From contig NZ_JAHBYG010000019.1 of the NCBI RefSeq assembly GCF_019636075.1, positions 2,494 to 66,493 on the forward strand: 64,000 bases of DNA, read 5' to 3'. Below are positions 13,270 to 33,495 of this stretch, in pieces (position 1 is the first letter of the stretch; every line of letters starts with the position of its first letter). Below the pieces are notes generated by a model. It was not told the origin of the DNA. It did not search any database and was given only the letters and a program-made list of their open reading frames with translations. Both the position numbers and the translations under genes were made by a program. The DNA is from Ferrovibrio sp. (lineage in GTDB: Bacteria; Pseudomonadota; Alphaproteobacteria; Ferrovibrionales; Ferrovibrionaceae).

Positions 13270-13666
13270 AACCGCAGCGGTGGACAAGGATTATCCCATC
13301 ACCGTGCGGCGGCTGACATCCGCCGAGGGCGGCGGCTGGCTGGCCAGCGTGCCGGATTTGCCCGGCTGCCATGGCGATGGGGCCACACCGGAAGCCGCCT
13401 TGCGCGATGCCCGTGCCGCCATCGCCGCCTGGATTGCCACCGCGCAGGAATTCGGCGACCGGATTCCCGCGCCACGCCGCGACGATGCCTTTTCCGGCCA
13501 ATGGCGGGTGCGGGTGCCGCGCTCTCTGCATCGCAAACTGGCGGAACGCGCTGCCCAGGAAGGCGTCAGCCTCAACACCTTCACCGCCACCTTGCTGGCG
13601 GAAGGCATCGGCGAGCGCCGTGCCCGCGCCGCCTCATTTGCTTCAGCAAAAACCGGCCGGCGCTAA
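13253..13666 (+). CDS. hicB: HicB-family antitoxin with C-terminal ribbon-helix-helix
   Basis: GGWLASVPDLPGCHGDGATPEAAL; FSGQWRVRVPRSLHRKLAERAAQEGVSLN. Confidence 0.9.
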   Translation: MALKRKTAAVDKDYPITVRRLTSAEGGGWLASVPDLPGCHGDGATPEAALRDARAAIAAWIATAQEFGDRIPAPRRDDAFSGQWRVRVPRSLHRKLAERAAQEGVSLNTFTATLLAEGIGERRARAASFASAKTGRR

Positions 13667-15326: not shown

Positions 15327-15329
15327 CGC

Positions 15330-15671
15330 TCAATCCAGCGGCGGAAACATATGCACGCCATCCTGGCCCAGCGGCAATGGGCGGATGCTGTGCACCTGAT
15401 CGGGCCGCAGGCTGGCATAGAGATGCGGAAACAGATCGCCGCCGCGCGCCGGTTCCCATTTCAAGGCATCGCCCAGGCTTTCGGCCTTTATGCTGAGCAG
15501 CAGCAGATCGGCGCGCCCGGCGCGATGTTTGGCCGCCGAGGCCGCCACCTGCGCGGCAGTGGAAAAATGCATGAAGCCGTCGCGCAGATCGTCGGGCGAG
15601 CCGGCGTAAGAGCCGCTTTGCAACGCCGCCTGCCAATCGGCCAGGGCGGCCATGTGATAGATCATGGTCAT
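15330..15671 (-). CDS. DUF952 family protein
   Basis: MIYHM, DGFMHFST..QV, LKWE...LFPHLY. Confidence 0.9.
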   Translation of the reverse strand: MTMIYHMAALADWQAALQSGSYAGSPDDLRDGFMHFSTAAQVAASAAKHRAGRADLLLLSIKAESLGDALKWEPARGGDLFPHLYASLRPDQVHSIRPLPLGQDGVHMFPPLD

Positions 15672-15687: not shown

Positions 15688-16116
15688 TTATTTCACCCGG
15701 CCTGTCGCCTTTTCCAGGGTGCGCAAACCGGCCATGCCGAGCATGGCAAGCACAAGTTCGATCAGGTTATCGGTCAGGATACCCGGCGGTTGCAGGCCCG
15801 GCGCCCAGAGCGCTGCGGCCCATTGGAATATCGGATGCCCGATATAGGCCCAGGCCACGCCGGCGGCGCAGACCCAGCCCACAGCGGGCCGCCAGCCGGC
15901 GACGAAAATCGAGCGATGCGCCGCCTCGATCTTGTTCAGTTCCACCTGCAATTCACCCGGATGCTGGCGCAGCTTTTCCAGCACCGCCTCGGCCTGGGCA
16001 CGTTCGGCATCGGAGGTGAATAATTTATCGAACACGTTGCCAATCGCCTCGATGGGGCTGGCAACGCCGCCGCCAGCCAAGGTACCACCCAGGGCACCGA
16101 TCAATCTGCCGAGCAT
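15688..16116 (-). CDS. 3-TM holin (holin of 3TMs, GTA-release type)
   Basis: ELNKIEAAHRSIFVAGWRPAVGWVCA...LAMLGMAGLRTLEKATG. Confidence 0.85.
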   Translation of the reverse strand: MLGRLIGALGGTLAGGGVASPIEAIGNVFDKLFTSDAERAQAEAVLEKLRQHPGELQVELNKIEAAHRSIFVAGWRPAVGWVCAAGVAWAYIGHPIFQWAAALWAPGLQPPGILTDNLIELVLAMLGMAGLRTLEKATGRVK

Positions 16117-16125
16117 GGCCGCCTC

Positions 16126-16566
16126 CTATGCGATATGATCGTAAAACACATGCCGGCCGATCCGCGCGCAGGGCTCGTGCCCGCGCGCCCAGCCGGGCAG
16201 GATATCCGCCGCGTGGTAATGCGTGGCTCCATGGGTGGGATCGGGCAGCGCGCCGGCCAGCGCCAGACGCGCGATGCGCAAGGCGGCGGCGAAGCTGTTA
16301 TCGATGGCGCCCACGCGCAACAGCTTGTCGCGGTTCGGATCCCCGGCATTCCAGCAGGAGAATTGCCAGGGCCGGAGGCAGACCTCGACGATATCGCGGC
16401 CCCACCAGCCCGGCCGCCGCGCGCGGTTGACGATCACGGCGGCCACCGCCGCCATGCCGGCCTCGCCCTCGCCGCGCGCTTCGCCCCACAGCGTGCGCGC
16501 CAGCACGTCGATCTCGCGCTCGCGGGCGGCATGGCCGGCCTGTTCGCGTTGCCGCGCCGGGGTCAT
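16126..16566 (-). CDS. Cell wall hydrolase (SleB/Hydrolase_2 family) endolysin
   Basis: DVLARTLWGEARGEG, QFSCWN, DPTHGATHYH, IGRHVFY. Confidence 0.92.
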   Translation of the reverse strand: MTPARQREQAGHAAREREIDVLARTLWGEARGEGEAGMAAVAAVIVNRARRPGWWGRDIVEVCLRPWQFSCWNAGDPNRDKLLRVGAIDNSFAAALRIARLALAGALPDPTHGATHYHAADILPGWARGHEPCARIGRHVFYDHIA

Positions 16567-16880
16567 GACCGCATGCCATATTGCTGCAGGCTGGCCTGAT
16601 CCAGCTTGGTTTCGATGCGCAGCAGATGTTCGGTCAACCGGGTTTCCACATCCTTCAGCAGGCCGATGGAGGCATAGGTCTGCGCCACTTCCAGCTTGTA
16701 ATCGGCCAGCGCGGCACGCAGGGCATGGATCGCCGTGCGGCTGTCGCGGTTGGCATTCTCCAGCGCGCGGCTGCAATCGTCGCGCTGGCGCTGTTGCAGC
16801 CAGAACAGCCCGGCCAGCGCCGGCAGTTCCACCGCCGTGAGCCACCAGGCGAGGTCGATGGTGAAAAGCGTGGCAGGCAT
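16563..16880 (-). CDS. Phage membrane protein (N-terminal TM plus coiled coil)
   Basis: WWLTAVELPALAGLFWL, then a heptad-rich helix; ATGA-coupled to the hydrolase. Confidence 0.7.
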   Translation of the reverse strand: MPATLFTIDLAWWLTAVELPALAGLFWLQQRQRDDCSRALENANRDSRTAIHALRAALADYKLEVAQTYASIGLLKDVETRLTEHLLRIETKLDQASLQQYGMRS

Positions 16881-16898
16881 GGGAATATCCTTCTCTGT

Positions 16899-18452
16899 CT
16901 AGGGGGTGAAATCGCTATCGGCATTGAAACCGCCGCCGCCCGGCCGCCAATCGCGGCGCCGTGCCCTGGTTTTCGCCTGTGCGCTCAGCCGCACCGGTTC
17001 GCTGAGCAGACAGCCGGCCACCGCATCCAGGCCATCGTCGCGGCCCTGGGAAATGCCCGGCCGCCATTCGCGCATCTCCACCAGGAAGGGCGAAGCCAGC
17101 ACGCTGTCATGGGCATGGATGGCGCCGGCCGCCAGCGGCGCATCGAAGGCGGCAAGAATGCGGGCTGCCTTGGCCTGGCGGCTGTTGCATTCGATCACCG
17201 CGGCACCCGGCCAATCCTCATCCGCTGCCAGCGCCAATTCGCGCCGCAGCAGCCCGGGCAGGAATTTGCCCAAGCCGTTGCTCTCGATCCGCACGGCGGG
17301 CAGATGCAGGTCGCGCAGAAAACCCACCACCTGGCGGCAAAGCTGGGTGGCCGCATCGGTTTCCTCCAACCGGCGCGGATCATGCTGCAGATAGGCCACG
17401 CGATGCAGGAAATACCCACCCTCGCCATCGCTGAACATCGCCGCGATCACGCTGCCATCGCCCTTGCGCGGCGTGCCATAGGCCGGATCCCACCAACACG
17501 AGGCCGAATGCATGCGGCGTGCGCCGATGCTGAGCTGCCAATGCCCGCCGGCCTGATGCAGCGCAATCTCGTCGCCATAGGGCCGCAGCAGATCGGGATT
17601 CAGCCGGCCATCTTCGGCGGCCGTGGGCTGCAACAGCATCTGGCTGGCGAATTTCGCCGGGCCGGAGCGTTTGCGGATGGTTTCGATCCGCTTGAGCGAA
17701 AACCGCTCGGGCCAGCGCGACCGCCCCTGTTCATCCACGATCGGCAATTCCAGCCGCTTGAAGCCATCGAGGAAAGGCGCATCCTCGCCGATCTCGCGGC
17801 GCGGCGTGGTGGCATAGATGCTGTAATAGGTATGCGGCGTGCCGATATAGAGCTGCATGCCGGTGGGCACCAGCACATAATCGATCTCGCCCAGGCGCTG
17901 GCGCAATTCCTCGCGCTTGGCCTGCGAGGCCGCCGTACCCGGCACTTCCACGTCGTCGCACAAAACCACATCGGCGCGGCAGCCGGTGATATTGCCGCCC
18001 AGGCCGCGCGCCAGCATGGAGGGATCGCGCAGTTCCAGCACGCGGTTGACGGTGAACTGATCCGCCGCCCATTGCTCGCGCCTGGACGGCTTGAGGCCCG
18101 CCGTGAGCGGATGGCGTTCGAGGATGCGTTTCACATTGCGCACCATCTTGCGTGCCAGGGCCTGTTCGGCGGCCAGCACCAGGATGCGCAGATTGGGATC
18201 GCGCAGCAAAAGCCAGGCGGCGAACAGACCCACCAGGCTGCTCTTGCCGGCATCGCGAAACACCAGCAGCAGCAATTCGCGGTCGCCATTGCGCCAACAT
18301 TGCTCCAGCCAGTCGAGGATGCTGAGATGCAGTACCGGCGTGGTGAGGCCCTGGCGCTGGTTCCACACATGCACGAAATCCGGCAGCGATACCGCCCGGG
18401 CCAGCTTCGGCGGCAGATTGCGCTGCGATGGCCTTGCTGCATCAGAGGTCAT
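16899..18452 (-). CDS. Terminase large subunit (T7-like)
   Basis: Walker A VFRDAGKSS, Walker B VVLCDDVE, IGTPH coupling motif, nuclease residues WWDPAYG, GDGSV, DDGLDAV. Confidence 0.92.
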   Translation of the reverse strand: MTSDAARPSQRNLPPKLARAVSLPDFVHVWNQRQGLTTPVLHLSILDWLEQCWRNGDRELLLLVFRDAGKSSLVGLFAAWLLLRDPNLRILVLAAEQALARKMVRNVKRILERHPLTAGLKPSRREQWAADQFTVNRVLELRDPSMLARGLGGNITGCRADVVLCDDVEVPGTAASQAKREELRQRLGEIDYVLVPTGMQLYIGTPHTYYSIYATTPRREIGEDAPFLDGFKRLELPIVDEQGRSRWPERFSLKRIETIRKRSGPAKFASQMLLQPTAAEDGRLNPDLLRPYGDEIALHQAGGHWQLSIGARRMHSASCWWDPAYGTPRKGDGSVIAAMFSDGEGGYFLHRVAYLQHDPRRLEETDAATQLCRQVVGFLRDLHLPAVRIESNGLGKFLPGLLRRELALAADEDWPGAAVIECNSRQAKAARILAAFDAPLAAGAIHAHDSVLASPFLVEMREWRPGISQGRDDGLDAVAGCLLSEPVRLSAQAKTRARRRDWRPGGGGFNADSDFTP

Positions 18453-18777
18453 CGGGGCCGCTTTCTTCGCTGCCGAGCGCATGCTTGCGGGCCTGGCCGA
18501 GGATATCGTGCAACGCCGCCTCGTCGATTTCAGGCGCCGCCGCTTCTTCCGCATCGGGGCCGCTGGGTTGCGGCAGCAGCCGCTTCACCGCCACGATATG
18601 CGCCAGCAAGGCACGGAAGGCGCCCTGGCGGGCCACTTCCGCCTTGTCGCCGTCATTGGCGCTGGCCGGCAGATCCTCATACACGCGCAGCACATCGTTG
18701 GCCTTGCGCAGCGTAACCGCCTGAAAGCGCCGGCCGAACCGCACGGCCTCGAGATGATCGGCATACATGGCGATCAT
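18442..18777 (-). CDS. Helical phage protein, possible terminase small subunit
   Basis: 111 aa immediately upstream of and overlapping terL; assignment is by position only. Confidence 0.55.
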   Translation of the reverse strand: MIAMYADHLEAVRFGRRFQAVTLRKANDVLRVYEDLPASANDGDKAEVARQGAFRALLAHIVAVKRLLPQPSGPDAEEAAAPEIDEAALHDILGQARKHALGSEESGPDDL

Positions 18778-18845
18778 TCCCCGGCGGTCTGCGGCTTGGG
18801 ATTCTTCACCGGCTTGTCGCCGGGCTTGATCGGAAATGCGGCCAT
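18774..18845 (-). CDS. 23-aa ORF MAAFPIKPGDKPVKNPKPQTAGE
   Basis: GGAGGAA RBS; starts 2 nt after the fibre stop and ATGA-overlaps the next gene. Confidence 0.5.
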   Translation of the reverse strand: MAAFPIKPGDKPVKNPKPQTAGE

Positions 18846-18847
18846 GA

Positions 18848-21331
18848 TCAATTCCTCCATTGCAGCCACACGCCATGCAGGCGCTGGGATTTGCCGTTGT
18901 GGGTTTCGAAGCGCCATTTCATGCTACTGCCGGATGGCTGGCCCGACAGATCCACGGTGGCGGCGAGGATGTTGGTTGCGGCATCGAAGCTGCCCTCGTC
19001 GCTAAGCGTGCCGCTACTCCAGGTGGTGCCGTTGTCGCGGCTCACCTTGATGATGGCATCGGTGTTCAGCGTCACGCCGTCCACCGGCTGATGCAGCAGC
19101 ACCACGCGGGCTTCGGCGGGCACCATCTCGGCCGCGAAGGCCGTGCTCACCATAACCACATCGGCGCCGCTGGTGATGGCATGGAATTGCAGCTCGGCCA
19201 CGCAGAAGCGCTGATCGCCGCTGCCGATATTGGAGGTCAGGTGGATGCGGTGATAGCGATAGGCCGCGCTGGTATTGATGCCCGACGTGACATCATGCAC
19301 CAGCTTGGTGGCACTGTCGGTGAGGCTGCCGGTATGCAGATCGGTCCAGCTGGAGCCGTTATTGGAGCCCTGCAGCTTGATGGTGATGGTGCCGCCATCC
19401 ACGCCGTAACCCTGGAAGCCCACATCGCTGGCCGATACCACGCGGAAGCGGGTGACCGTATGGCTGTTGCCACTGCCCCAATCCTTGCCCAGCAGCAACG
19501 GATCGGATGGCGAGGCCGAACTGTAATAGGCACCGGCGGAATAGGTTTGCGTTTCGTTGGCATCGAAAGCTGCCGCCAGGCCGCCGCCCGAGGTGGCATT
19601 GCCGATACTGCTGCCGCCGGAAATCACGCCTTCCAGGGGATTGTGATAATAATCCCCGGCGGCATCGTAGGTGGCGCCGCCGGCCGAGCCGATGCCGGTG
19701 CTGTCTTCGAATTCATCGGCGATGCCATCCACCATGTTGAGCAAAGACCAGCCGGCATCGATCTGGTCGCGCAACGTATTGATGGCGAGATTGCGTTCGA
19801 GGAATTGCAGCCGCGCTTCGAACACCGCCGGCACCGCCACCCATTCGCTGTCGTAATCGCTGCCCGAGGCCTTGGCGAGGAAATAGCCGCTAGCGCCGCC
19901 GCTGGGCACGCCCGCGCCGGCCGGACCTTGCGGGCCGGTGGCACCCGTTGCACCCATGGCGCCGGCGGCACCCGTGGGCCCGGTAGCGCCGGTGGGGCCT
20001 TGCGGACCGGTAGCCCCGGTGGGGCCCTGCACGCCGGCCGGGCCTTGCGGGCCGGTGGCGCCGGTGGCTCCCGTGGCACCCGTGGCACCTGCGGACCCGG
20101 TGGCGCCGGTGGCGCCGGTATCGCCCTTGGCGGCCAGCAGCGCCCAATAGGTGGGCGAGCTTTCCGGCGCATGATCCGTGCCGGCCTGCAAGGCGATATA
20201 GGCCGCGCCATTGCGGCCCACCGCATCATCCACCGCATAGGCCGTGGCCGACGACCAGGCGCCCTGCCATTGCAGGCCCTTGTCGCCCTGCACGCCTTGA
20301 ATGCCCTGCACACCTTGCGGGCCCTGCTCGCCCTGTTCGCCCTGGGGGCCGATGCCGCCCTGCGGACCGGTGGGCCCCTGTTCGCCGCGCCCGAACGGCA
20401 CGCCATCGGACCAATCGCCTGCCGTGCCGGAGAGCTTGAAATACAGATAGCCGGTATCGGTGGCCAGATAGCTGAAGCCATCGGCTTCCGCGTCGTGGCT
20501 GGCACGGCCGGCATACAGACCCACTTCATCGGGGGTGAAGCTCTGGCCGGCAATGCCCTGCGGCCCCTGAATGCCCTGGATGCCCTGGGCCCCGCCCGGA
20601 CCCTGAATGCCTTGCGATCCCTGCGGCCCCGTGGCCCCGGCCGGACCCGGCACGCCTTGCGGCCCCGCCGCGCCCTGCGCGCCCTGCGGACCGGTGGCGC
20701 CGGTGGCACCTTGCACGCCTTGCGGACCTTGCGCGCCGGTAGGCCCGGTGGCGCCCTGCGATCCTTGCGGACCCTGCGCGCCTTGCGGGCCGGTGGGACC
20801 GGCAGGCCCCTGGGCACCCTGCGGCCCCGGCGGGCCCTGGGGCACATCGCCCTCGCCATAGAAAGCCGGCCGGCCATCGGCATCGAAGCCCAGCAGCTTG
20901 CCGGCACGGTCGCCATAGGGCAGCGCCAGATCCGCCGCCGGCACCGTCAATCCCGCTTCATGCAGGCGCAGGGCGCGGCTGGCCGAATCATCCACCTGCT
21001 GCAACAGCAACGCGATGCGGTCGAGTTCCTCGTTCAGCGCGCGAGCGCGGAATTCGCCGCCCTCCACGAAATCGGTTTCGCGCTTGATCGCCATGCGGCG
21101 CGCCGCCGTGATGCGGCTGCCGGAGGCCGGCGCGGTGGCGAATTGCAGCACCGCCCCGGCGCTCTGGTTGAGATTGCCCACGCTGAAACCGATGCCGCTG
21201 GGCAGGGCGTCGATCCAGACCAGCAGGTCGGCGGCGGCCAATACGGGAAACGGCAGGCTGAATTCGGTCTGCAAGCCGTTGGCGATGAATTGCGCACGCG
21301 GCGGCGCGGCGGAAACGATCAGGTCGGTCAT
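18848..21331 (-). CDS. Tail fibre with T7 gp17-like anchor, collagen Gly-X-Y blocks, CBM-like motif and discoidin-like domain
   Basis: N-terminal [29 protein letters not shown]; three Gly-X-Y runs; [27 protein letters not shown]; [20 protein letters not shown]. Confidence 0.88.
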
Positions 21332-21346
21332 GGGGGATCCTTTCGC

Positions 21347-21808
21347 TTACGATGTCCGTGTCGGATTCGTTTGGCTGCGCTCATAGGCATTCAGCCCGGT
21401 GCGGACCAAAGAGAGCAGGCCATTGGTGGTGGCTTCGCGCTGGCGCAGCAGGTTGATGCGGCCGGCGGCATCGAAATTGGCAAGCTGGTCGTTATAGCTG
21501 CTGGCCAGCCGGCTGCGTTCCTGCTCGCTTTCCGCCAGCAGGTTGTTCATCAGCGCACCGGCCGAGCCATCGCCGGAAACCCCCGATGCCGCGAAAGCCG
21601 CGCGCTGCGCCGCCTGGCTGCGTGCCAGACGATCCTGACGCTCTTTCTCGGCATCGGCATATTGGCGATCCAAAGCCTGCTTCTGCTGCGCCTGGGCGGA
21701 AGCCTGGGCCTTGGCCTGAGCGCTGGAATTCGCCATGCCTGCAACGGTGCTGACGGCACTGCTTGCCAGCGTAGCCCATAACAACGGTGCTGCTGAAATT
21801 GCGGCCAT
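21347..21808 (-). CDS. Internal virion protein-like (Ala/Gln-rich)
   Basis: SQAAQRAAFAASGVSGDGSA motif; located after tail tubular B, like T7 gp13/14. Confidence 0.6.
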   Translation of the reverse strand: MAAISAAPLLWATLASSAVSTVAGMANSSAQAKAQASAQAQQKQALDRQYADAEKERQDRLARSQAAQRAAFAASGVSGDGSAGALMNNLLAESEQERSRLASSYNDQLANFDAAGRINLLRQREATTNGLLSLVRTGLNAYERSQTNPTRTS

Positions 21809-23730
21809 TATTCGGTTCCTTTCAGTTCGGTGTAGACGGAAAGCAGGGTGAAGGGTTGCGGCGCCGCCTGGTCGATGCGCCAGAGCGGTTTATCGACACC
21901 GCGCACCCAGCCCAGGCCGCGCATTTCGCGGTCGCCGGTGAACGGCACCGGGGCTGCATCCAGCGCGCCGGTTTCGCCGAAGCGGGTGAAGGCCAGGGCA
22001 CGCGGGCCATTGCCCATATCCACCAGCAAAGCCGCCGTATCCTGCAGGCGGAACACCGCGCGGATCAGCCGCACCGGGCCGGATTGCGCGATGGCATCGC
22101 CGCCGATCTCGGCCGGCAGCGGCTCGATCTCATGCTTGAACGGCAGGCCCACTTCGATGCTGCTGGCCGCGCTGGCCAGGCTGAGCATGCCATCGACGAT
22201 GCCGTAGCTGCCGCGATCGATGCCATCGGCGCGCACCCGCACGCTGCGGCCTTCCAGATGCTCCAGCCCGCCCCAGACGGTTTTCGGATCATTGCTGCTG
22301 CCGCGCCAGGCGGCATCGCAGAAACAGGCTTCATCCAGGCATTCGAGATACAGACCGTTCTGGCGCTGCACCAGCACATAGATGCTGTCGTTCAGCACCG
22401 CCACGGCACGGAAGGCGCCGTCGGTCTGCAATCTGGTCCAGGCCAGGATCTGCTGGCTGCGGAAATTGGTCTGCACCGCCAGGCTGCCATCGCCCATCGG
22501 CAGCAGGATCAGCTTGCGCGTGGCATCGTAATCCATGCCGCGCGGATCGTTGAACAGATGCGGCACCAGCAAAGCCATATCCTCGGCGGAATAGGCCTGG
22601 TCGAGATCGGTATAAAGGAACTGCCGCAAACCGCGCCCATCGCGGGCGATGAACATGGTGGCGCCATCCACATGGCAGGGCGGAATGCTGCGTTCGATCT
22701 GCGAGCCGATGCGGGTCTGGCGATCGACACGCAGCTTGGCCGGCGTGAGCGGCTCGCCGGTGATCATCCATTCGGCGCCGGCGGTGAACAATTGCAGATG
22801 CCGCCCGGCCACCACGGCGCGGATCGCTTCCACCTGATCGGTGAGCAGGGAGAATTCGATCGACTCGTCGTCCAGCGCGGTGCCGAGATTGAAATTGGTG
22901 ATATCGGAGGTTTTCGACATCCAGACCCGGTTGGGCAAATCGCGCGAGCCGGCGAAGATCAGCCGCTCCTGGAACAGCGTCACCGCCACCGGCCAGCCGC
23001 GATGATCGGAAAACGCCTGCTCCTCCCAATCGCGGGTGGACGCGGCATCCACCAGGGATTCCTTGGTGGTGGCGGTGGCCTGGGTGGCCGAGCTGATGCC
23101 GGTGATTTCCACTTCCTTCTTCTTGATGCGGAAGCGGGTGCCGATATGCGCGTCGGTGAACAGATCCTCGGATGCGGTGAGCGTGATCGTGCCGCTGGTG
23201 GAAGACGGCGTCAGGGTCACGTCTTCCTTGGCGAATTTGAAACTCGGCACGCGCTTGATGCCGCTGCCATCCTCGATCTTGAAAGCGAAGCCGGCGATAT
23301 CCCAATTGTCATGCGCGGTGCGGGTGAGGCGCTGCGGCGGAATATCCGGATGGCAGATGAACAGCGTATCGGCGCTCTGCACCCAGCTGAGCTGGCGCAC
23401 CTGATCGGCGGACCAGGGCGCGGCCACGATGGCGGCCAGGGTTTCCTGGTGGAACACCCGGATCTCGCCTTCGATGAACAGCAGCAGATAGGTCTGCTCG
23501 GTGTTGAAGCGGAAGGTGACCAGCCGCGCGCCCTCATCCTCGGAATCGGGCAGCATGGCCACATGGCGCAGGCCGGGCCGTCGGGTGACGCCTCCGGTGG
23601 GCCGGATCAGCACGTTGCGCAGCTTGGCGGCGCCGTTGGCATAAGCCGACAGATCGGGCCGGCCGAGCAATTCGGCGGCGATTTCGCCGGCAGTGAAATT
23701 GTTCTTGAACGCGCGCAGCCTGGCCATCAC
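21808..23730 (-). CDS. Tail tubular protein B (T7 gp12-like nozzle)
   Basis: KNNFTAGEI..GRPDL, GGVTRRPG, F..EQTYLL, GWPVAVTLFQERLIFAG, WMSKT. Confidence 0.88.
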   Translation of the reverse strand: MMARLRAFKNNFTAGEIAAELLGRPDLSAYANGAAKLRNVLIRPTGGVTRRPGLRHVAMLPDSEDEGARLVTFRFNTEQTYLLLFIEGEIRVFHQETLAAIVAAPWSADQVRQLSWVQSADTLFICHPDIPPQRLTRTAHDNWDIAGFAFKIEDGSGIKRVPSFKFAKEDVTLTPSSTSGTITLTASEDLFTDAHIGTRFRIKKKEVEITGISSATQATATTKESLVDAASTRDWEEQAFSDHRGWPVAVTLFQERLIFAGSRDLPNRVWMSKTSDITNFNLGTALDDESIEFSLLTDQVEAIRAVVAGRHLQLFTAGAEWMITGEPLTPAKLRVDRQTRIGSQIERSIPPCHVDGATMFIARDGRGLRQFLYTDLDQAYSAEDMALLVPHLFNDPRGMDYDATRKLILLPMGDGSLAVQTNFRSQQILAWTRLQTDGAFRAVAVLNDSIYVLVQRQNGLYLECLDEACFCDAAWRGSSNDPKTVWGGLEHLEGRSVRVRADGIDRGSYGIVDGMLSLASAASSIEVGLPFKHEIEPLPAEIGGDAIAQSGPVRLIRAVFRLQDTAALLVDMGNGPRALAFTRFGETGALDAAPVPFTGDREMRGLGWVRGVDKPLWRIDQAAPQPFTLLSVYTELKGTE

Positions 23731-24296
23731 AAACGCGCCTCCACCAGAGTGAAATCCTCGATGCGGCCGGGCTCGCCCTGCTGCGCGTCCACTGCCTTGG
23801 CGCGGCGGAATTCATCCTCCGACAGCTTGAACAGCAATTCCGCGCGGCTGGTGCTCTCGGTCAGCGGCAGGCAGAATTCCGCCGCCAGGCGCGCGCACAG
23901 CGCCTGGTCGAAGAAAGCCGGAAACGAGGCTTCGTCGGGCCGCAGGATATAGGTCAGCGTGATCTGCTCGGCATTGGCATGCAGGTTGCCGGCCACGATG
24001 CGATAGCCGATGCCGCGGCCGCGTTCGGCGATACCGGCCGACAATGCGCGCAAGAAATCCGGCGGCAGCTGGAAGGCATGGGAGAAATCGGCGCGCGGCG
24101 GCGCGACCAGGCGCGCCAGGTCGGTCTGCGCGGTGGCGAAACGCCAGGGATAGGCAGACAGCAGCGCATCGCGGGTGGCCGGATAGACATGGCGCGCCAC
24201 TTCGGCTTCCACGCTGCCATCATCGAAAGCGCTGATCGGGCGGGCGGCCAGCGCCACCAGGGCCCGGCTGCAAAGCTGAACGGCGTTGAGCGCCAT
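23727..24296 (-). CDS. Tail tubular protein A (T7 gp11-like adaptor)
   Basis: AVQLCSRAL..PISAFDDGSVEA, LLSAYPWRFA, FQLPPDFLR, CARLAAEFCLPLT. Confidence 0.88.
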   Translation of the reverse strand: MALNAVQLCSRALVALAARPISAFDDGSVEAEVARHVYPATRDALLSAYPWRFATAQTDLARLVAPPRADFSHAFQLPPDFLRALSAGIAERGRGIGYRIVAGNLHANAEQITLTYILRPDEASFPAFFDQALCARLAAEFCLPLTESTSRAELLFKLSEDEFRRAKAVDAQQGEPGRIEDFTLVEARL

Positions 24297-24494
24297 GGCT
24301 GGAATCCTTTCATTGTCGTGCGGGCAAGCTCCCCGGGTGGGGTGCCCCGGCGGCGGGGAAAACCGCCGGGACACCCAGGCCGGCGCGGGGGAGCACGCGC
24401 CGGCCGGGCCGCCATGACACGCATCCCGGGTTTCGGTGATGGCTGCGCGCGGCCCAAAACGCGCGCAGCGGTCAGGCGGGCGAAGGCAACCGGA

Positions 24495-24764
24495 TCAATC
24501 GGTATCCGTGCCGCCGAACGCGGTGAGATCGGCGAGATCCACCACGCCGCCGCTATTGGAGGCGACCACGAAGATGCCATGCGCCGGCGAGCCGCCGGTG
24601 GCGCAGTTGGCGAGGATGAAGTCGCCGACCCGCAGCATCTCCACGGCCGCGTTGAAATAGCCGCTGGTATCCACGGTGGCCGCCGTGTCGGTGGTGGTGT
24701 AATGCCAGAGCGTGAAGCCGTTGGCGTAGCCGAGCACGCTCAGATTCTTGGCCTGGTAAGCCAT
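24495..24764 (-). CDS. Small beta-rich virion protein (possible capsid decoration)
   Basis: 89 aa directly after the capsid gene, with an AAGGAG RBS; GFTLWHYTT..VDTSGYFN. Confidence 0.6.
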   Translation of the reverse strand: MAYQAKNLSVLGYANGFTLWHYTTTDTAATVDTSGYFNAAVEMLRVGDFILANCATGGSPAHGIFVVASNSGGVVDLADLTAFGGTDTD

Positions 24765-24807
24765 GACGATGTCTCCTTCTTGCGGATGTTGGGGAGGGGT
24801 GGCGGGA

Positions 24808-25626
24808 TCAGCTTTCGAGGCAGCGGAGCGTCACCACGCCGGTGCCGTCGATCAGCGCGGCGCCCTGACTCATCATGTTGTTGATGAACAGGGCGGCGCG
24901 GTCGCCATGCCAGGAGATGTCGGATTCCACATCCTTGCCCGAGGCATGACCGAGCGCGGTCTTGTGATACCAATGGCAGAACCGCACATTGCCGCTGAGC
25001 GTGAGGCCGCTATGGGCGATCCACAGCGTGCCCAGCCATTGCTTGGCCTGGGCGCCCTTCCAGGGCAGGTTGTCGTCGCCCACGTAATCCGCATCGGCGA
25101 ATTCCGGGATGTCGAGCAACTGGCTCCACTGGCGCCAGCCGATCACCGCGGTGCGCTGGCCATCGTCGGGCACATCGGCGCCGCCGAGCAGTTCGAACGC
25201 GGTGAGGATCTTCGCCTTGGTGAGACCATCGGCATTGCCGCCGGCATAGTTGGTGGAACTGTCCAGCGCCTTGATGATCAGCTCGTCGGTCTTGCGGCCC
25301 AGCGCATAGGCGCCGGCATTCACGATCACGTCGCGCTCGCTATGGCCGACCTTGATCTCGTCGAGCGCATCGAGCCATTCGCCGGCATAATAATCCTGCA
25401 GGGCGCATTCCACCGAGCCGTGATCCACATTCATCACCGGCACCTTGCCGTGCCGTGCCTTGGTGGAGGCGCTGCCCTTGCCGACCTTCTGGAAGGTGGT
25501 GGAAGCGCCCTTGATGTCGCCCTTCGAGCGCACCGTGGGGCGCAGCTTGGAGCCGAGCCGCTGATAGGCATTGTGCACGTCCTTTTCGAACTGCCGCACA
25601 AAGCCGGTTTCGATATTGGGAGTCAT
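24808..25626 (-). CDS. Major capsid protein (T7/BPP-1-like, 272 aa)
   Basis: FVRQFEKDVHNAYQRLGSKLR, DYYAGEWLDALDE, AYALGRKTDELII; AAAGGA RBS. Confidence 0.88.
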   Translation of the reverse strand: MTPNIETGFVRQFEKDVHNAYQRLGSKLRPTVRSKGDIKGASTTFQKVGKGSASTKARHGKVPVMNVDHGSVECALQDYYAGEWLDALDEIKVGHSERDVIVNAGAYALGRKTDELIIKALDSSTNYAGGNADGLTKAKILTAFELLGGADVPDDGQRTAVIGWRQWSQLLDIPEFADADYVGDDNLPWKGAQAKQWLGTLWIAHSGLTLSGNVRFCHWYHKTALGHASGKDVESDISWHGDRAALFINNMMSQGAALIDGTGVVTLRCLES

Positions 25627-25803
25627 GTTGGGGTGTCCTTTTCGAGTTGCGGGAATGCGTTGGGTGCACTTCGCCCATCGCGTTCTCCGCAATAGCGGGC
25701 GCGTCTGGAGAGGCATTCGGTTCGGGGAGCCGCCCGGCCCGGAGAGGCGCGCGGTGGCCTGGCGCCGGGTTATCGGAACGGAAATGCAAAAGCGGGAGAG
25801 GCT

Positions 25804-25845
25804 GCCCGATATCCGGCCGGTTCATGCGCCGGCCGGATATCGGGC
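25804..25845. repeat. Perfect 17-bp inverted repeat between scaffold and capsid genes
   Basis: GCCCGATATCCGGCCGG-8 nt-CCGGCCGGATATCGGGC. Confidence 0.95.
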
Positions 25846-25858
25846 CTGGGGCGCGCGA

Positions 25859-26614
25859 TCAGCCCGGATACAGCCTCCGGAAACCCTGGGTAACCTTGTC
25901 GAGGATTTCGGGGTCGCGACGCTTCCAGTAGCGCGGGTCTTGCATCAGCTTGACCAGCTGTTCCTCGGTCAGCGCCTCGTCCGAGCCGCTGCCTTCGGCA
26001 CGCCGCAGCGTCGGCTCGCCGGATTTCATCATGGCTTCCAGCGCGATCACGCCCTGGGCATTGCTGGCCAGCGCCGCGAAGGTGCTTTCCGGCAGATTGG
26101 CGCGGCCCCAGATTTCCAGGCTGCGGGCGACTTCCCGGTAGCGCGCCGGGCCGCCGAAATGCTGTTCCAGCTTTTCGCGTTCGCTGCGCGCGCTGAAGCC
26201 CGATACCAGATCGTCGATCTGCGGCATCACATGATCGCAGGCCAGGTCGTAGACCAGCTGGGCCTGGGCGGGCGTGAAGCCGGCCGCATGCAGCTTGGCA
26301 TTCACCTCGGGATCCACATGCAGTTGCGGATGGCGCAGCTGGATGCTGTAGCCATCGGGCGCATCGGGCACGCCCAGCGCACGATGGAAACCGCGCAGGC
26401 CATCGGCGTCGCCCTCGGCGGGCAGCCGCACCATGCCGGCCATGCGGCGCTCCAGCGACAGGTAGGATTTCAGCAGCTTGTCCACCTGGATCGCGCCGGT
26501 CTGCGGGTCGCGGAATTTCGCCGGCACGGCATCAATGCCTTCGGCGGCGAGGCCATCGGCAACCGGCGGAATGGCCGCCGGCTGCGCTTCATCGGTAAGC
26601 AGGTTCTGGGTCAT
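25859..26614 (-). CDS. Capsid scaffold/assembly protein
   Basis: VPAKFRDPQ..LLKSYLSLE, LGVPDAPDGY, LMQDPRYWK; located between portal and capsid. Confidence 0.8.
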   Translation of the reverse strand: MTQNLLTDEAQPAAIPPVADGLAAEGIDAVPAKFRDPQTGAIQVDKLLKSYLSLERRMAGMVRLPAEGDADGLRGFHRALGVPDAPDGYSIQLRHPQLHVDPEVNAKLHAAGFTPAQAQLVYDLACDHVMPQIDDLVSGFSARSEREKLEQHFGGPARYREVARSLEIWGRANLPESTFAALASNAQGVIALEAMMKSGEPTLRRAEGSGSDEALTEEQLVKLMQDPRYWKRRDPEILDKVTQGFRRLYPG

Positions 26615-26655
26615 CGAGGTCGGTCCTTTCGGTTGCGTGATCATGTTATGTTCTT

Positions 26656-26901
26656 TCAGTCTTCCGCGATCCGGGCGAGTTGCGTGCCATCGCGGCCGCG
26701 TTGCATCAGCGCCTCGATATGGGCCAGCAGATGGCGCTGGCCTTCGAGATGCCGCAACTCGGCTTCCGGGCAATCCGGCGCCAGCCGGCGTTCCACGGTG
26801 ATGCGCCGTAAATGCCCGAGCAGCCTTTCGCCCTGCGGCGTGCCGAGACAGCGCGCGGCATCCAGCGCCAGTTGATCGGTATCCACCGGCCGCGCGGTCA
26901 T
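26656..26901 (-). CDS. Small phage protein (Bbp19-like position)
   Basis: LGTPQGERLLGHLR..LEGQRHLL; ATGA-coupled to the portal. Confidence 0.7.
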   Translation of the reverse strand: MTARPVDTDQLALDAARCLGTPQGERLLGHLRRITVERRLAPDCPEAELRHLEGQRHLLAHIEALMQRGRDGTQLARIAED

Positions 26902-28607
26902 GCCGCACCTTCCATCATTTGCTGCAAGGCCGGCGCAGCCTGCTGCAGCATCGGCGCCAGCGCCGCCATCGGATCGGCCCCGATCTGCTGCTGCTGCTGC
27001 TGTTGTTGTGGCGGCTGAGGATCGGCGGGTTGTTCGCCGGCTTCGAGCAGGAATTCGCCGGGCACGCCGAGCGTGCGGCCGAGCCAGCGCGCCACGGCGG
27101 TCTTGTCCACCACCGCATCGGCGGCGGGGCCCAGCGCCTTGATCTGCTCCAGCCACATCAGGATGCCCTGGATGTCGGCCTGGCTTTGCACGCGCGCCAG
27201 CGGCGATTGATACGCCAGCTTCACCTCGCGGCCATCCAGGGCGAAATCCGGGATCTCGCCGCGCCGCTGCAGAATCTCCACCACGCGGTCGATCAGCGGG
27301 GTGAGGAATTCGCCTTGCAGCCGGCCGAACACCGCACCCAGCAACCGGGCCATTTCGGCGGCGCGTTCCAGCACTTCGGTGGCGCTCATCTTCGGTGCCG
27401 CCACCTGGCCCAACCGATCCACCAGCAGCGCATGGCGGATGCGGCCGCGCAGATCGTCGAGCACCAGTTGCGAGATATCGAAACGGCCCGGCGCGGCCAG
27501 CGGCGTAAGGCCCGACGAACCCACCGCCTTGGGAATGATGGCGCCCGGCACCAGCTTCACATTGGCGGGATTGAGCACGCCATCGTCATCGGCCTGCCAG
27601 ATCCCGGTGACGGCGATGGAGGCATTCTTCAACACCAGTTCCACCACCTTGTTGGCGGTCTTGATATCGGGCAATGCCTTCATCACCGGCGAACGGCCAT
27701 ACACATCGCCGGCGGCCTTGATCCAGCGGAAGGCGATGAACGGCGAGCGTTGGAAACGGCCGCGTTCCAAAAGCCCGCCTTGCAGCAGGCCGCCTTGCAT
27801 CAGACTATCGGCTTCGGCGCCATCCATGTCGTCTTCCAGCAGCGCGATGAAATCATAGCCGGCGGCGGACCTGCCGCCGCCTTCGCGCGGCAACACGCAT
27901 TCCAGCACGCCGATGCGGGTTTCGCCGTCGCTCTGCTTGCCCAGCCTGGCCACCACGGCGGCCGCTCTGGGATAACGCGCCAGCAATTGCTGCGGGCTGA
28001 GCCGGCGCTGCCGGAAAGCCACATCCAGCCGGCCGCTGGGGCCTTCTTCCAACACCACATCCTGGATCGGCACCGCCGTGAAACGCAGCACCGAGGGCGC
28101 ACCGAGTTCGGCTTCTTCCACCGCCAGGCAGGCGGTGCCGGCGGTTACCAGATCGAGATAGCATTGATGCGCCGCCACAGCGAAATCGGAGCGGTCGATA
28201 TGATTCTGCGCCCGGGCCGAAGCGCGATCCAGCAGGCTGGCGACCTCGCCCTGCATATCCGGCGCAATCTCCTCGCCCGGCTGAAAAGCGAACCAGCGCG
28301 ACCAGGGCGGCGTCAGCTGCGCCAGCAAGCTGGCAGCCAGTTGATCCACCGCATCGGCGGCCGTGCCATCGAACAGCGTGTCGGCGCGGCGGCCCGGCTG
28401 GTTATGGCTGCCCTGGCGACCGGACGATCCCACGCCATGCTGTTCGGAAGACAGCGGCAAGGTGTAGTCGAAGCAATCGCGCCAGCGGGTTTCCCAGGCC
28501 GAACGCGCCGCCTTGGCCTTGCGGAACCGCTCGCGCAGGTCGGTCGCCTGCGGATCGGCAATGTTGGCATCGGACATCGGGGGAAGGGTTTGCATGATCG
28601 GCCTCAT
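26898..28607 (-). CDS. Portal / head-tail connector (T7 gp8 family)
   Basis: LFDGTA..LTPPWSRWF, YGRSPVMKALPDIKTAN, MSATEVLER, YQSPLARVQ. The start may be 28577-28607. Confidence 0.93.
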   Translation of the reverse strand: MRPIMQTLPPMSDANIADPQATDLRERFRKAKAARSAWETRWRDCFDYTLPLSSEQHGVGSSGRQGSHNQPGRRADTLFDGTAADAVDQLAASLLAQLTPPWSRWFAFQPGEEIAPDMQGEVASLLDRASARAQNHIDRSDFAVAAHQCYLDLVTAGTACLAVEEAELGAPSVLRFTAVPIQDVVLEEGPSGRLDVAFRQRRLSPQQLLARYPRAAAVVARLGKQSDGETRIGVLECVLPREGGGRSAAGYDFIALLEDDMDGAEADSLMQGGLLQGGLLERGRFQRSPFIAFRWIKAAGDVYGRSPVMKALPDIKTANKVVELVLKNASIAVTGIWQADDDGVLNPANVKLVPGAIIPKAVGSSGLTPLAAPGRFDISQLVLDDLRGRIRHALLVDRLGQVAAPKMSATEVLERAAEMARLLGAVFGRLQGEFLTPLIDRVVEILQRRGEIPDFALDGREVKLAYQSPLARVQSQADIQGILMWLEQIKALGPAADAVVDKTAVARWLGRTLGVPGEFLLEAGEQPADPQPPQQQQQQQQIGADPMAALAPMLQQAAPALQQMMEGAA

Positions 28608-28816
28608 TCGCCCAGCAGCGTCTTACGGGCTTCGGCGCTGCCACCGTCGTTGCCGCCGGAGACGCCGCGATAGGAGGTGGCGATGGTTTCGCCCTGGGCG
28701 CGGCGGCGGCGTTCCCGCGCGATACGCTGCGCCTCTTCGTTGGGATCCTCGGGCTGCACCACCGGGGCTGCCGGAATGGGTGCCGGCGGCGAGGGGCTGC
28801 TGAAAATTCCGCCCAT
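28604..28816 (-). CDS. Small pre-portal phage protein (70 aa, ends KTLLGE)
   Basis: GGAGG RBS before MGGIFSSPSPP; its stop overlaps the portal start; first gene after the promoter. Confidence 0.75.
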   Translation of the reverse strand: MGGIFSSPSPPAPIPAAPVVQPEDPNEEAQRIARERRRRAQGETIATSYRGVSGGNDGGSAEARKTLLGE

Positions 28817-29353
28817 GATCTGCCTCCATCTTTCATGCCAGGCACGCAGCCGGCTGTTATTGATCCGCCAGGGCTGCCTTCCACCGGCTTGCAACCGGGA
28901 AGACAGATTTTGTTCCTGATATGTACTTTTATAATTGGATCGAATTCCTTCGTCAAGGGAAAACTCTCTTAGATAGCAAAAAAGTTTCCATGGTGTTCTA
29001 ATTGTATAATCCTGTAATCCTATAAGACGCTTCACCACCTCCACGCAGGTGAAAGCCACGGGCGGCGCCGGGCGTTCCGGCGGCATGCGCGCCTCCACTG
29101 TCAGCGCCATCCATCCGGCGCGGCGAAACGCAGCGGCCAGATCGGCTTGGCTGGGAAAATCGACCAGGTCGAGAACCAGCCGTTGCGACAACGGGTCCAG
29201 CGCGATCCAGCCGGCCCGGCTCAAACCGTAAGCAAAACAATGGCGGAATCCCGGCTTCAACAGACGTAAGTATTTGATCCTATTTTGTTCTGAAAACACC
29301 ACCACAACCCGCCCAATGCCCTGGTTTGCATAAGGCAGATCGGCCCATTTCAT
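28604..29353 (-). CDS. Putative permuted papain-like (His...Cys) protein reading in frame into the pre-portal protein
   Basis: VVVFS..LKPGFRHCF, W...DP, FTCVEVVKRLIG, TPWKLF; no stop before the 28816 start. Confidence 0.6.
   Translation of the reverse strand: MKWADLPYANQGIGRVVVVFSEQNRIKYLRLLKPGFRHCFAYGLSRAGWIALDPLSQRLVLDLVDFPSQADLAAAFRRAGWMALTVEARMPPERPAPPVAFTCVEVVKRLIGLQDYTIRTPWKLFCYLREFSLDEGIRSNYKSTYQEQNLSSRLQAGGRQPWRINNSRLRAWHERWRQIMGGIFSSPSPPAPIPAAPVVQPEDPNEEAQRIARERRRRAQGETIATSYRGVSGGNDGGSAEARKTLLGE
28912..28926. promoter_or_regulatory. Alphaproteobacterial LexA (SOS) box
   Basis: (T)GTTC-CTGATAT-GTAC, one mismatch to GTTC-N7-GTTC, 1 nt from the -10 hexamer. Confidence 0.65.
28928..28956 (-). 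promoter_or_regulatory. Near-consensus sigma70 promoter of the structural operon
   Basis: TTGACG-N17-TATAAA in an AT-rich patch, about 110 nt upstream of the first RBS. Confidence 0.75.
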
Positions 29354-29578
29354 CTTAATGGGATATTTAGATGGTATTGAATCACCTAATAAGGGTATCA
29401 TTTGACATGGATGTGGCATTTTCGGTGCAGTGGGGAGGTTTGCGTTTAACGGGGAATTGCGATCAGTCTGCTACTTTTTTTATATGTTGTAATATTAACC
29501 TGTATTGTTCTCATGTCAAACACTATTTTGGTGCATATTCCTGTAGCCAAAACGGCTACTCTGTGGGACGATGTTCCC

Positions 29579-30343
29579 ATGTTAACCCATAAAGCGATTT
29601 GGACCGCGATCGATGCCCTGGCCGAAAAGCATGGTCTGACTGCCTCCGGCCTGGCCCGCAAGGCGGGCCTCGATCCCACCACCTTCAACCGCAGCAAACG
29701 CGCGGCGCGGGATGGCAAACAGCGCTGGCCATCCACCGAGAGCATTGCCAAGGTGGTGGAAGCCACCGGCACCACCATGGCCGAATTCCTGGAAGTGCTG
29801 CTGGATAGCAGCGCCGGCGGCCGTGGCTCCGCCTTCCGCATCCCCACCGTGGATTTCCTCTCGCTCAATGGGCCGGAACAGCAACCCGGCCAGCCGGCAT
29901 TGCCGGGCGACCCGGAGCGGCTGCGGGCATTGTTCGATCCCGCCGGCCTGCCGATCCGCCAGATCGATCCAGCCAAACTTGATGCGGCCAAACTTGATAC
30001 AGCCAAGCTTGAAACAGCACGCAGTGCGGAATCCATCGCCTGGGATCTGCGGCCGTTTCCCGGGCTGCATGACGACCGGAGCTATGCCCTGGAGCTGAAT
30101 ACCCATGCCTTCGAGCCGCTCTATCGCCTGAACGCGGTGCTGATATTGTCGCCGCGCGCCGAAATCCGGCGCGGCGACCGCCTGCTGGCCGCCACCGTGG
30201 CCGGCGAATTCCTGCTCTGCGCCCTGGTGCGCAAAACCCTTACCCGGGTTGAAGTGTCGGATCTGAACAAGCCCGACCAGGAGCGCAGCTTCGATACATC
30301 GGAAATCGCCTGGCTGCACCGCATCGTCTGGGCCACGCAATAA
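29579..30343 (+). CDS. cI-like HTH repressor with degenerate S24 domain (COG2932 type)
   Basis: IWTAIDALAEKHGLTASGLARKAGLDPTTFNRSKR..RWPSTESIAKV; C-terminal YALE..EPLYR..IRRGDR..RIVWATQ. Confidence 0.9.
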   Translation: MLTHKAIWTAIDALAEKHGLTASGLARKAGLDPTTFNRSKRAARDGKQRWPSTESIAKVVEATGTTMAEFLEVLLDSSAGGRGSAFRIPTVDFLSLNGPEQQPGQPALPGDPERLRALFDPAGLPIRQIDPAKLDAAKLDTAKLETARSAESIAWDLRPFPGLHDDRSYALELNTHAFEPLYRLNAVLILSPRAEIRRGDRLLAATVAGEFLLCALVRKTLTRVEVSDLNKPDQERSFDTSEIAWLHRIVWATQ

Positions 30344-33443: not shown

Positions 33444-33494
33444 TTCCGTTACTCAGGTCATTCCGTTGCTCAGGTCATTCCGTTACTCAGGCCC
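33444..33494. repeat. 17-bp tandem repeat x3 between antitoxin and toxin
   Basis: TTCCGTTACTCAGGTCA / TTCCGTTGCTCAGGTCA / TTCCGTTACTCAGGCCC. Confidence 0.9.
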
Positions 33495-33495
33495 A

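Follow-up and report, generated by a model that had tools for sequence, protein, structure and literature searches.

The 64-kb window of Ferrovibrio sp. analysed here (the whole stretch of 64,000 nucleotides from contig NZ_JAHBYG010000019.1) harbours, at positions 15688–30343, an intact 14.7-kb set of T7-like head, short-tail, packaging and lysis genes. Such a locus raises the question of whether it belongs to a phage residing in the chromosome, functional or decaying, or to a particle that the bacterium keeps for its own ends and, in the latter case, what that particle does. An earlier note, made from the letters of the DNA alone, had read it as a podovirus-type cluster maintained by the host, with a gene transfer agent (GTA) or a bactericidal particle as its product. 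Host maintenance is supported by the computational refutation tests that we ran, none of which went against it, and we are highly confident that the cluster is anciently domesticated, vertically inherited, maintained by selection and free of replication and integration genes. On its function our confidence is lower, although we consider it probable that the cluster is a domesticated T7-like podovirus module for virion, packaging and lysis (a ‘viriform’) whose role is most likely GTA-like. Going beyond the earlier note, our analysis also points to SOS-type control of the family, to missing ejection proteins and to a remodelled regulatory region in the window copy.

Extent and composition of the cluster

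Fifteen genes on the minus strand run from 29419 down to 15688, as judged from codon-position GC and from gene calls transferred from an NCBI contig (JBBCKJ010054115.1) of 99.0% identity, and a divergent regulator gene on the plus strand (29579–30343) lies at one end of the cluster. As most long open reading frames (ORFs) are shadows in this 64%-GC window, genes were selected by GC at the third codon position (GC3) and frame analysis, and families were assigned by Pfam and PHROGs matches. Gene junctions are tight or overlapping, for example at 26898/26901, 23727, 21808 and 16563/16566. All genes are intact and their codon usage is host-like, with GC3 at ~0.8 in the cluster and its flanks alike, in agreement with the GC-rich codons remarked on before. 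The earlier note had counted about 17 co-oriented ORFs; the co-orientation held, whereas the number came down to 15 plus the regulator, the ORF at 29446–30036 (minus strand) being rejected as an antisense shadow of the regulator.

The proposed lack of replication and integration genes beside an intact podovirus-type head-tail-lysis cluster was confirmed by the Pfam and PHROGs matches and by window-wide searches. No integrase or replication gene was found in the window, no tRNA gene across the whole 64 kb, and no att-like direct repeats bracketing the cluster, where a repeat search returned only collagen-repeat families and chance matches. Nor did the window, the provirus spans of IMG/VR or the flank census (the latter two described below) show an RNA polymerase or DNA replication module belonging to the element. 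Both neighbours proved to be host genes, as had been claimed. Outside the element on the lysis side (13663–15671, minus strand) lie DUF952 (15330–15671, PF06108), a 204-aa ORF (14712–15326) and pyrD (13663–14715, PF01180), and beyond the regulator lies a DinG-like helicase gene (30364–33210, plus strand; PF13307 and PADLOC DinG models). The remaining genes of the window are housekeeping genes (fabI, aroC, pssA, psd, obg, proB, proA, thrS and glycosyltransferases) and one low-GC defence island. Metagenome contigs from four samples spanned both cluster junctions at a depth equal to that of the flanks. Apparent ‘joints’ in metagenome contigs had sides of only 21–48 letters, and were rejected as real junctions and treated as chance.

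Distribution in bacterial genomes and virus databases

A scan of one genome per species detected relatives of the cluster in at least 532 species genomes, and the best 80 of these loci were examined closely. When searched by tblastn with the window proteins, most of the 80 showed the same genes in the same order. They belong to Ferrovibrio, Elioraea, Acetobacteraceae (Siccirubricoccus, Belnapia, Craurococcus and others), Azospirillum, Magnetospirillum, Terasakiella, Caenispirillum, Roseospirillum, Pacificispira and many metagenome-assembled genomes. Cluster look-ups placed it genus-wide on the main chromosome of Azospirillum (A. brasilense, A. baldaniorum, A. argentinense, A. lipoferum 4B, A. 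oryzae, A. melinis, A. doebereinerae and others). The portal is also present in M. gryphiswaldense and P. magnetotacticum, and the nozzle has more than 2000 homologues of near-constant length, many of them on megabase-size contigs. The patchy, strain-level distribution that would speak against host maintenance was therefore not seen; the cluster is clade-wide, and genus-wide in Azospirillum.

The virus databases gave a corresponding picture. IMG/VR returned 354 matches, and nearly all of the best 80 lie on contigs of 4–19 kb; the complete provirus calls among these span exactly the regulator to the lysis genes (12–18 kb), and none of the best 80 is a phage genome of 35–45 kb that contains the module. 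GenBank phages yielded a single close full-length record, Pelagibacter phage EXVC031P Hodr (hereafter Hodr), the capsid of which is 45% identical to that of the window. Full-text literature searches found no published description of a T7-like domesticated element in these bacteria.

Several database labels deserve a remark. GenBank MT838907.1, a 5-kb ‘Bacteriophage sp.’ record from human faeces with a capsid of 59% identity, probably represents part of an element of this kind. Two contigs bear the labels Solirubrobacterales (L072) and Hyphomicrobiales (L028), yet in the tree their elements group inside Rhodospirillales clades; a third contig, assigned to Rhodobacterales (L075) and of insufficient length for tree building, has the same module. 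This suggests that the three labels reflect mis-binning.

Inheritance and selection

If the host maintains the cluster, its surroundings and phylogeny should follow those of the host, as the earlier note had pointed out. The synteny proposed for the two neighbours holds on one side: DUF952 and pyrD lie next to the lysis end in 24 of 52 informative loci and in four deep lineages (Ferrovibrio, Elioraea, Acetobacteraceae and Azospirillum), whereas the DinG-like helicase is a neighbour common only to the Ferrovibrio and Elioraea loci. Congruence with the host was borne out. Distances between the capsid, adaptor, nozzle, large terminase (TerL) and portal proteins of different loci go together with the corresponding distances of the adjacent pyrD (Mantel r 0.80–0.91, p ~5e-4), and distance-based (neighbour-joining) trees of element and pyrD agree down to the branching inside Azospirillum, with genera and families monophyletic.

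Selection on the element equals that on its host neighbour. In 12 close genome pairs, the ratio of non-synonymous to synonymous rates (dN/dS) of the element genes was 0.01–0.4, well below 1 and in the range of pyrD, with dS similar to that of pyrD. A comparison of the window with the 99%-identical strain gave 79 synonymous and 23 non-synonymous differences in the element (a ratio per site, pN/pS, of 0.10), as against a pN/pS of 0.057 in the host flanks at equal pS (0.023 vs 0.025). Orthologues are almost never pseudogenes: reading frames are intact in 67/67 loci for the capsid, 67/67 for TerL, 47/47 for the scaffold, 43/44 for the portal and 79/80 for the nozzle.

A replication or integrase module travelling with the element had been named as evidence that would count against domestication. 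In a Pfam census of 129 ORFs flanking ~50 loci, no such family recurred; the commonest flank families were PF11351 holin, pyrD, lysyl-tRNA synthetase, FabI, EamA and DUF952. No tRNA lay within 10 kb in 43 of 51 loci, and in the remainder its occurrence was inconsistent. The annotated loci L082, L164, L167 and L168 showed no prophage-style ends, with host genes on both sides.

The neighbourhood of pyrD offers a further observation. In Azospirillum an EAL-domain gene and thrS follow right after pyrD (L164, 19170–21896), and the window, too, holds an EAL-domain gene (4011–5411) and thrS (43961–45952), farther off and rearranged. Their placement hints at an older, larger conserved neighbourhood.

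Rearranged and split copies

In a number of genomes host genes are embedded in or abut the cluster (L167, 12691–15571; L166, 3652–6743; L035, L050, L058 and L070), and the arrangement is conserved across Azospirillum species. For example, A. argentinense has a GGDEF/EAL sensor gene and a PRC-domain gene between scaffold and capsid. In the A. doebereinerae/A. agricola/A. cavernae group host genes encoding a DEAD helicase, SodC and FUR immediately precede the block from capsid to TerL, and the portal is found elsewhere in the genome at more than 80% identity. M. gryphiswaldense has a block from repressor to scaffold, followed by host genes. Such drift in architecture, with inserted host genes and split modules while the genes themselves are conserved, appears GTA-like by analogy.

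One copy is visibly damaged. In A. baldaniorum Sp245 (L164, CP022253.1 750820–772715; positions 1–8943) the capsid gene is reduced to its last 74 codons, and upstream of this remnant lies other phage-like DNA that includes a 593-aa SLT-domain protein and a GH108 lysozyme. The capsid gene of A. argentinense, unlike that of Sp245, is intact.

Structural and lysis genes

The genes of the operon, all on the minus strand, are described here from its promoter-proximal end. The pre-portal ORF (28604–29419, 271 aa; phrog_831) is conserved in ~41 loci by tblastn, with a dN/dS of 0.12–0.38. It is a fusion of the counterparts of two small genes of other lineages, ORF-B (stretch 28967–29308) and ORF-C (28604–28816, phrog_831), and the gene caller took only its last 70 codons. 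The portal is of the T7 gp8 type (26898–28595, 561 aa; PF12236 1e-133, phrog_332 3e-105). It is followed by a small Bbp19-like protein (26656–26901, 81 aa), recognised by PF25181 on the precomputed gene call mapped to the window and present also in Azospirillum and Magnetospirillum loci, and by a scaffolding protein of the T7 gp9 type (25859–26614, 251 aa; PF05396 3e-12). Downstream lie the major capsid gene (24808–25626, 272 aa; PF19821 1e-79, phrog_3437 4e-66) and a conserved 89-aa protein of the virion module (24495–24764; phrog_18004 8e-24), found in 62 loci and with a homologue in Hodr.

The short tail comprises a gp11-like adaptor, or tail tubular protein A (23727–24296, 189 aa; phrog_394 2e-44), in 81 of 81 loci, and a gp12-like nozzle, or tail tubular protein B (21808–23727, 639 aa; phrog_376 4e-141, PF25675). 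The next gene (21347–21808, 153 aa) may encode a gp14-like internal virion protein. The matches are weak (PF24072 4e-5, below the curated cut-off; phrog_805/418 ~5e-4), and the assignment is partly positional, a phrog_418 protein occupying the same place in Hodr. The tail fibre (18848–21331, 827 aa; Pfam Collagen 2e-27 and many PHROG fibre families) consists of an N-terminal tail-attachment part, collagen repeats, and distal CBM5/12-like and F5/8-type-C-like domains. Its conservation across loci is limited to residues ~1–155, and distal domains are exchanged between lineages, the Azospirillum fibre being of pectate-lyase type as opposed to the collagen/CBM/discoidin-like fibre of the window. 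A fixed N-terminus with swapped distal domains is a pattern compatible with continuing selection for cell binding.

For packaging, a candidate small terminase (TerS; 18442–18768, 108 aa) sits at the T7 gp18 position directly upstream of TerL. It has no family match, although ORFs at this position form one homologous family (32 of 55 linked at E<1e-4). TerL itself (16899–18482, 527 aa) is of the T7 gp19 type (phrog_38 3e-78; PDB 4bij/8dgc, T7 gp19, ~1e-23), and its Walker A/B and nuclease motifs are kept in 69 loci. The lysis end begins with a 105-aa protein (16563–16880; phrog_29007 3e-28, 64 loci) whose hydrophobic N-terminus and coiled-coil-like remainder make it a candidate spanin-like lysis accessory. 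An endolysin of the SleB/Hydrolase_2 cell-wall hydrolase type (16126–16566, 146 aa; PF07486 on the gene call, phrog_938 2.5e-23) and a holin (15688–16116; PF11351 1.5e-16, phrog_3427 2e-28) complete the operon. The holin belongs to GTA_holin_3TM, the family of the holin of the Rhodobacter capsulatus GTA (RcGTA), and this family adjoins the element in 12 further loci. The pre-portal ORF, the TerS candidate and the 89-aa and 105-aa proteins matched no Pfam family. In the window cluster all virion genes belong to T7-type families, with neither a prohead protease nor a tape measure or major tail protein among them.

Control region and regulator

Between the regulator and the operon lies a divergent control region (29420–29578) with a sigma-70-type promoter for the structural operon on the minus strand. 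A promoter scan identified TTGACA (29519–29514) and TAATAT (29497–29492) separated by a 16-nt spacer, with 10 of 12 consensus matches. Direct alignment of 32 control regions of the family revealed a further element, an exact GTTC-N7-GTTC on the operon strand in 22 of the 32 (0.018 expected per 360 nt). The box lies against or across the −10 of a TTGAC(A/T) promoter, and downstream of it come the ribosome-binding site and start codon of a gene that we term ORF-A. Because of the overlap with the −10, a strict regular expression for −35, −10 and box matched only 2 of the 32 loci. GTTC-N7-GTTC is the SOS (LexA) operator of alphaproteobacteria (PMC3091678, PMC9578287).

ORF-A is the conserved first gene of the operon, directly downstream of the LexA box, and encodes 121 aa (8935–9300 in L168, and 35 other loci). 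W26, W28, P52-C53 and a KGI motif close to the C-terminus are among its invariant residues. The protein matches no Pfam family, and a profile search returned no PDB relative.

The regulator (29579–30343, plus strand, 254 aa) combines an N-terminal Cro/CI-type helix-turn-helix (HTH) with a degenerate S24 (LexA/CI-like) domain. In 32 loci a full-length homologue (37–67% identity) accompanies the portal module. In these orthologues Peptidase_S24 scores 1e-25, compared to only 14.8 bits for the window copy, and the residues of self-cleavage are retained: the Ser of G[DE]SM in 31/32, the Lys in 30/32 and the Ala-Gly cleavage site in AQAG in 30/32. As read from these motifs, control of the family looks to be by SOS, acting directly through the LexA box and together with a second, self-cleaving repressor.

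The copy in the window is derived, having lost the LexA box, ORF-A and the cleavage chemistry of the repressor. The box is absent from the control regions of the window and the Ferrovibrio clade, and ORF-A is missing from these and from L004. In the window regulator the catalytic Ser and Lys and the AQAG cleavage site are all replaced, with an AKLD-repeat insertion, AKLDAAKLDTAKLETA, exactly at the self-cleavage site of the orthologues. Despite this loss the regulator remains under purifying selection, differing from the 99%-identical strain by 3 synonymous changes and 1 non-synonymous change. With the cleavage residues gone, induction of the window copy, if any, needs a route other than repressor self-cleavage.

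Ejection proteins

The T7 late-gene order read into the cluster by the earlier note stands as an order, though not as a complete set: in the window the gp14-like gene comes directly before the fibre, with no proteins of gp15 or gp16 size between them. In Hodr the nozzle and gp14-like genes are followed by a 783-aa protein, a 1247-aa ‘internal virion protein with endolysin domain’ (phrog_342) and the fibres. Neither of these two large proteins gave a tblastn match in the window or in the 80 loci, and the interval from nozzle to TerL is only 2–3.5 kb in most loci. In T7, gp15 and gp16 form the channel across periplasm and inner membrane. The absence of such proteins from the cluster suggests delivery no further than the periplasm, in which case the uptake machinery of the recipient would be needed, as proposed for RcGTA.

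Other features of the window

A low-GC island on the plus strand (50260–53934; ~52% compared to 63% GC) holds an Iet defence pair, probably of horizontal origin, made up of an IetA-like AAA+ ATPase (PADLOC 3e-72) and an S8 subtilase resembling IetS (4e-30). Adjoining pyrD (13021–13666, plus strand) is a HicB antitoxin gene of 137 aa (PF15919/PF05534). An 82-aa ORF upstream, partly overlapping it and without a family match, could by its position be the HicA-type partner. Just downstream of the DinG-like helicase gene, at 33444–33508, lie three tandem copies of the 17-nt unit TTCCGTTACTCAGGTCA. At the end of the window, a second low-GC stretch (61716–63129, plus strand) contains ORFs of 246 and 214 aa, neither of which matched Pfam or PADLOC models.

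Discussion

These data are best explained by a T7-like podovirus module that entered the chromosome of an early Rhodospirillales-type alphaproteobacterium and was thereafter inherited vertically under selection, and the mechanism that fits best is that of a GTA. A strong sigma-70 promoter would drive one long operon in the order that we observe: pre-portal genes, portal, scaffold, capsid, adaptor, nozzle, gp14-like gene, fibre, TerS, TerL and lysis genes. In most lineages, the host LexA box over this promoter and the divergent autocleavable HTH-S24 repressor would let DNA damage switch the operon on; the box and the catalytic residues are observed, while LexA binding and induction are predicted from them. 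Procapsids would assemble and be filled by the T7-type terminase and, since the element has no replication or excision functions, the packaged DNA should be mostly chromosomal. Holin and endolysin would lyse the producer cell, and the variable fibre would bind other cells. Without proteins of the gp15/gp16 type the DNA would probably reach only their periplasm, from which the recipient would have to take it up.

The closest functional parallel is RcGTA (Rhodobacter capsulatus and relatives, Rhodogtaviriformidae). Like it, the present system, known here from its genes, is a head, tail and lysis cluster of phage origin that lacks genes for replication and integration; it is ancient, has been passed on vertically under purifying selection in a large clade of alphaproteobacteria, and may have parts at several loci. 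The two have a holin of the same Pfam family (PF11351), and both probably lack dedicated inner-membrane DNA-ejection proteins. Their virions are non-homologous, however, that of RcGTA being HK97-type and siphovirus-like, compared to the T7-type portal, scaffold, adaptor, nozzle and TerL found here. Control differs as well: RcGTA responds to CtrA, GafA and quorum sensing, whereas the present family has a LexA box and an S24 repressor. Large clusters of the RcGTA type are absent from Rhodospirillales, which have only fragments of them (PMC5721377), so that the host ranges of the two families are complementary. The element FpGTA of Faecalibacterium prausnitzii, reported in 2026, has been called the first GTA-like element of podovirus-like morphology (PMC12946183). 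Compared by its description, it is similar in having genes that resemble those of short-tailed phages, in two operons that include lysis genes (PMC12946183), but it belongs to Firmicutes and its particles have been shown to contain ~9 kb of host DNA, whereas the present family is alphaproteobacterial and T7-like.

With Hodr and other T7-like podoviruses the cluster shares the order portal, scaffold, capsid, adaptor, nozzle, gp14-like protein and fibre, and the window proteins include the gp8-type portal, gp9-type scaffold, gp11/gp12-type adaptor and nozzle, and gp19-type TerL of the T7-like phages. Hodr proteins are 45% (capsid), 35% (portal) and 32–35% (nozzle) identical to those of the window. 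Unlike these phages, the cluster lacks RNA and DNA polymerases, a primase-helicase and the remaining early and middle genes. Hodr, in turn, has a TerL of another type placed elsewhere in its genome, while the present element is chromosomal, host-like in composition and vertically inherited. PBSX of Bacillus subtilis and the PrtR-regulated pyocins resemble the family in that they are chromosomally fixed, inducible by DNA damage (predicted in the present case), governed by a repressor of the Xre/CI-S24 type and released by lysis. They differ in being myovirus-like, siphovirus-like or headless, in belonging to other phyla and in being unrelated in sequence; the present family also has a LexA box directly on its late promoter.

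Particles of a matching kind may already have been seen. Mitomycin C induces particles with ~10 kb of random host DNA in A. lipoferum, A. doebereinerae and strain B510, according to papers that cite Boyer et al. 2008 (PMC3899980, PMC2818188). The responsible locus was never firmly assigned and no prophage of that size was found in B510, while a 2012 paper tentatively assigned the particles to HK97-like terminase-portal-protease-capsid regions. A. lipoferum, A. doebereinerae and B510 all carry the present cluster, and induction by DNA damage matches LexA/S24 control; a load of ~10 kb, on the other hand, would imply a smaller capsid than the nearest phage has. The particles described by Boyer and colleagues are also said to be siphovirus-like. 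We regard the present cluster as a lead to their source, and no more.

A host-maintained cluster need not transfer genes. SOS-induced particles of the kind represented by PBSX (a ‘phibacin’) might adsorb to competitors and harm them, with DNA packaging as a by-product; the combination of LexA box and S24 repressor is like the logic of pyocins and PBSX, the lysis cassette is kept, and highly variable fibres with swapped distal domains are what strain-specific targeting would lead one to expect. A short T7-type tail without gp15/gp16-type proteins has, however, no obvious means to breach the inner membrane, and the TerL motifs, portal, scaffold and TerS candidate are under strong purifying selection although pure killing does not need them. 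Tailocins dispense with heads and lack capsid, portal and terminase, whereas here capsid, portal, scaffold and terminase are present and conserved. We consider a killing role unlikely, if worth serious attention. Somewhat less credit still goes to another host role, be it SOS lysis that releases DNA and nutrients for kin, interference with T7-like phages or a container that transfers nothing. The signals of domestication are silent on which function is selected, and SOS-linked lysis genes are present, but neither lysis nor exclusion alone needs an adaptor, nozzle, fibre and complete packaging machinery, which are intact in nearly every locus.

The readings that deny domestication are contradicted by the data. 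Ordinary temperate phages might integrate again and again near pyrD at a conserved site, or the replication and integration genes of a phage or satellite might lie elsewhere or be supplied by a helper; the nearest sequenced relatives are indeed real phages, as the 45% identity to the Hodr capsid illustrates, a CI-like repressor is present, and IMG/VR lists these regions as proviruses. All the provirus calls are nonetheless of 12–18 kb, and no integrase, att site, tRNA or replication gene occurs in the window, nor does any recur among the 129 flanking ORFs. Moreover, element trees and dS follow pyrD even within genera, host genes inside the cluster are conserved across Azospirillum species, and read depth equals that of the flanks. 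We therefore hold this explanation to be very improbable. That the element is an inert prophage remnant in decay seems to us scarcely credible: the degenerate repressor of the window copy, its missing LexA box and ORF-A, and the broken capsid gene of Sp245 would suit it, yet all 15 structural and lysis genes are intact in the window, the two strains differ by a strong excess of synonymous changes at the pS of host genes, and intactness and low dN/dS throughout the family, across orders, are incompatible with neutral decay.

Several points weigh against a domesticated module with GTA-like function. Hodr packages 34 kb; if the present capsid is as large as that of Hodr, the whole 14.7-kb cluster would fit into one particle, unlike in classical GTAs. 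The usual substrate of T7-type terminases is a specific concatemer end, and packaging would here have to start on a chromosome. The functions of gp15 and gp16 could lie elsewhere in the genome, as some genomes split the cluster. SOS-induced lysis with particle release fits a killing role too. The pyrD neighbourhood is not kept in 28 of the 52 informative loci, the truncated capsid gene of Sp245 means that the element can be lost, and our close examination concerned the best 80 of the at least 532 genome loci. In one cultured isolate, RNA-seq contigs covered the whole cluster at about flank depth, a measure that cannot separate transcription from carry-over of DNA.

A domesticated T7-like module of GTA-like function would mean that the domestication of phage particles was repeated in sister alphaproteobacterial lineages with another type of virus and another logic of control, in that a T7-derived counterpart would answer to DNA damage where RcGTA answers to CtrA and quorum sensing. 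To our knowledge, only a handful of independent GTA families have been recognised, and nearly all mechanistic work has been done on the siphovirus-like RcGTA type. Tentatively, and with less than even confidence in the proposal as a whole, we suggest that the cluster represents a second, independently domesticated and order-wide alphaproteobacterial GTA family, derived from a T7-like podovirus and found in Rhodospirillales-type lineages without RcGTA-type clusters; it would be wired to the SOS response, deliver chromosomal DNA to the periplasm of kin only, and may be the source of the Azospirillum particles. Its carriers include genetically tractable species (Azospirillum brasilense, A. argentinense, A. 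lipoferum and Magnetospirillum gryphiswaldense). The finding marks ~350 IMG/VR ‘proviruses’ and some PHROG families as probably non-viral. For the bacteria themselves it bears on horizontal gene flow in plant-associated and environmental species, and the family would offer a natural experiment on which parts of a T7-like virion become dispensable once infection is no longer needed.

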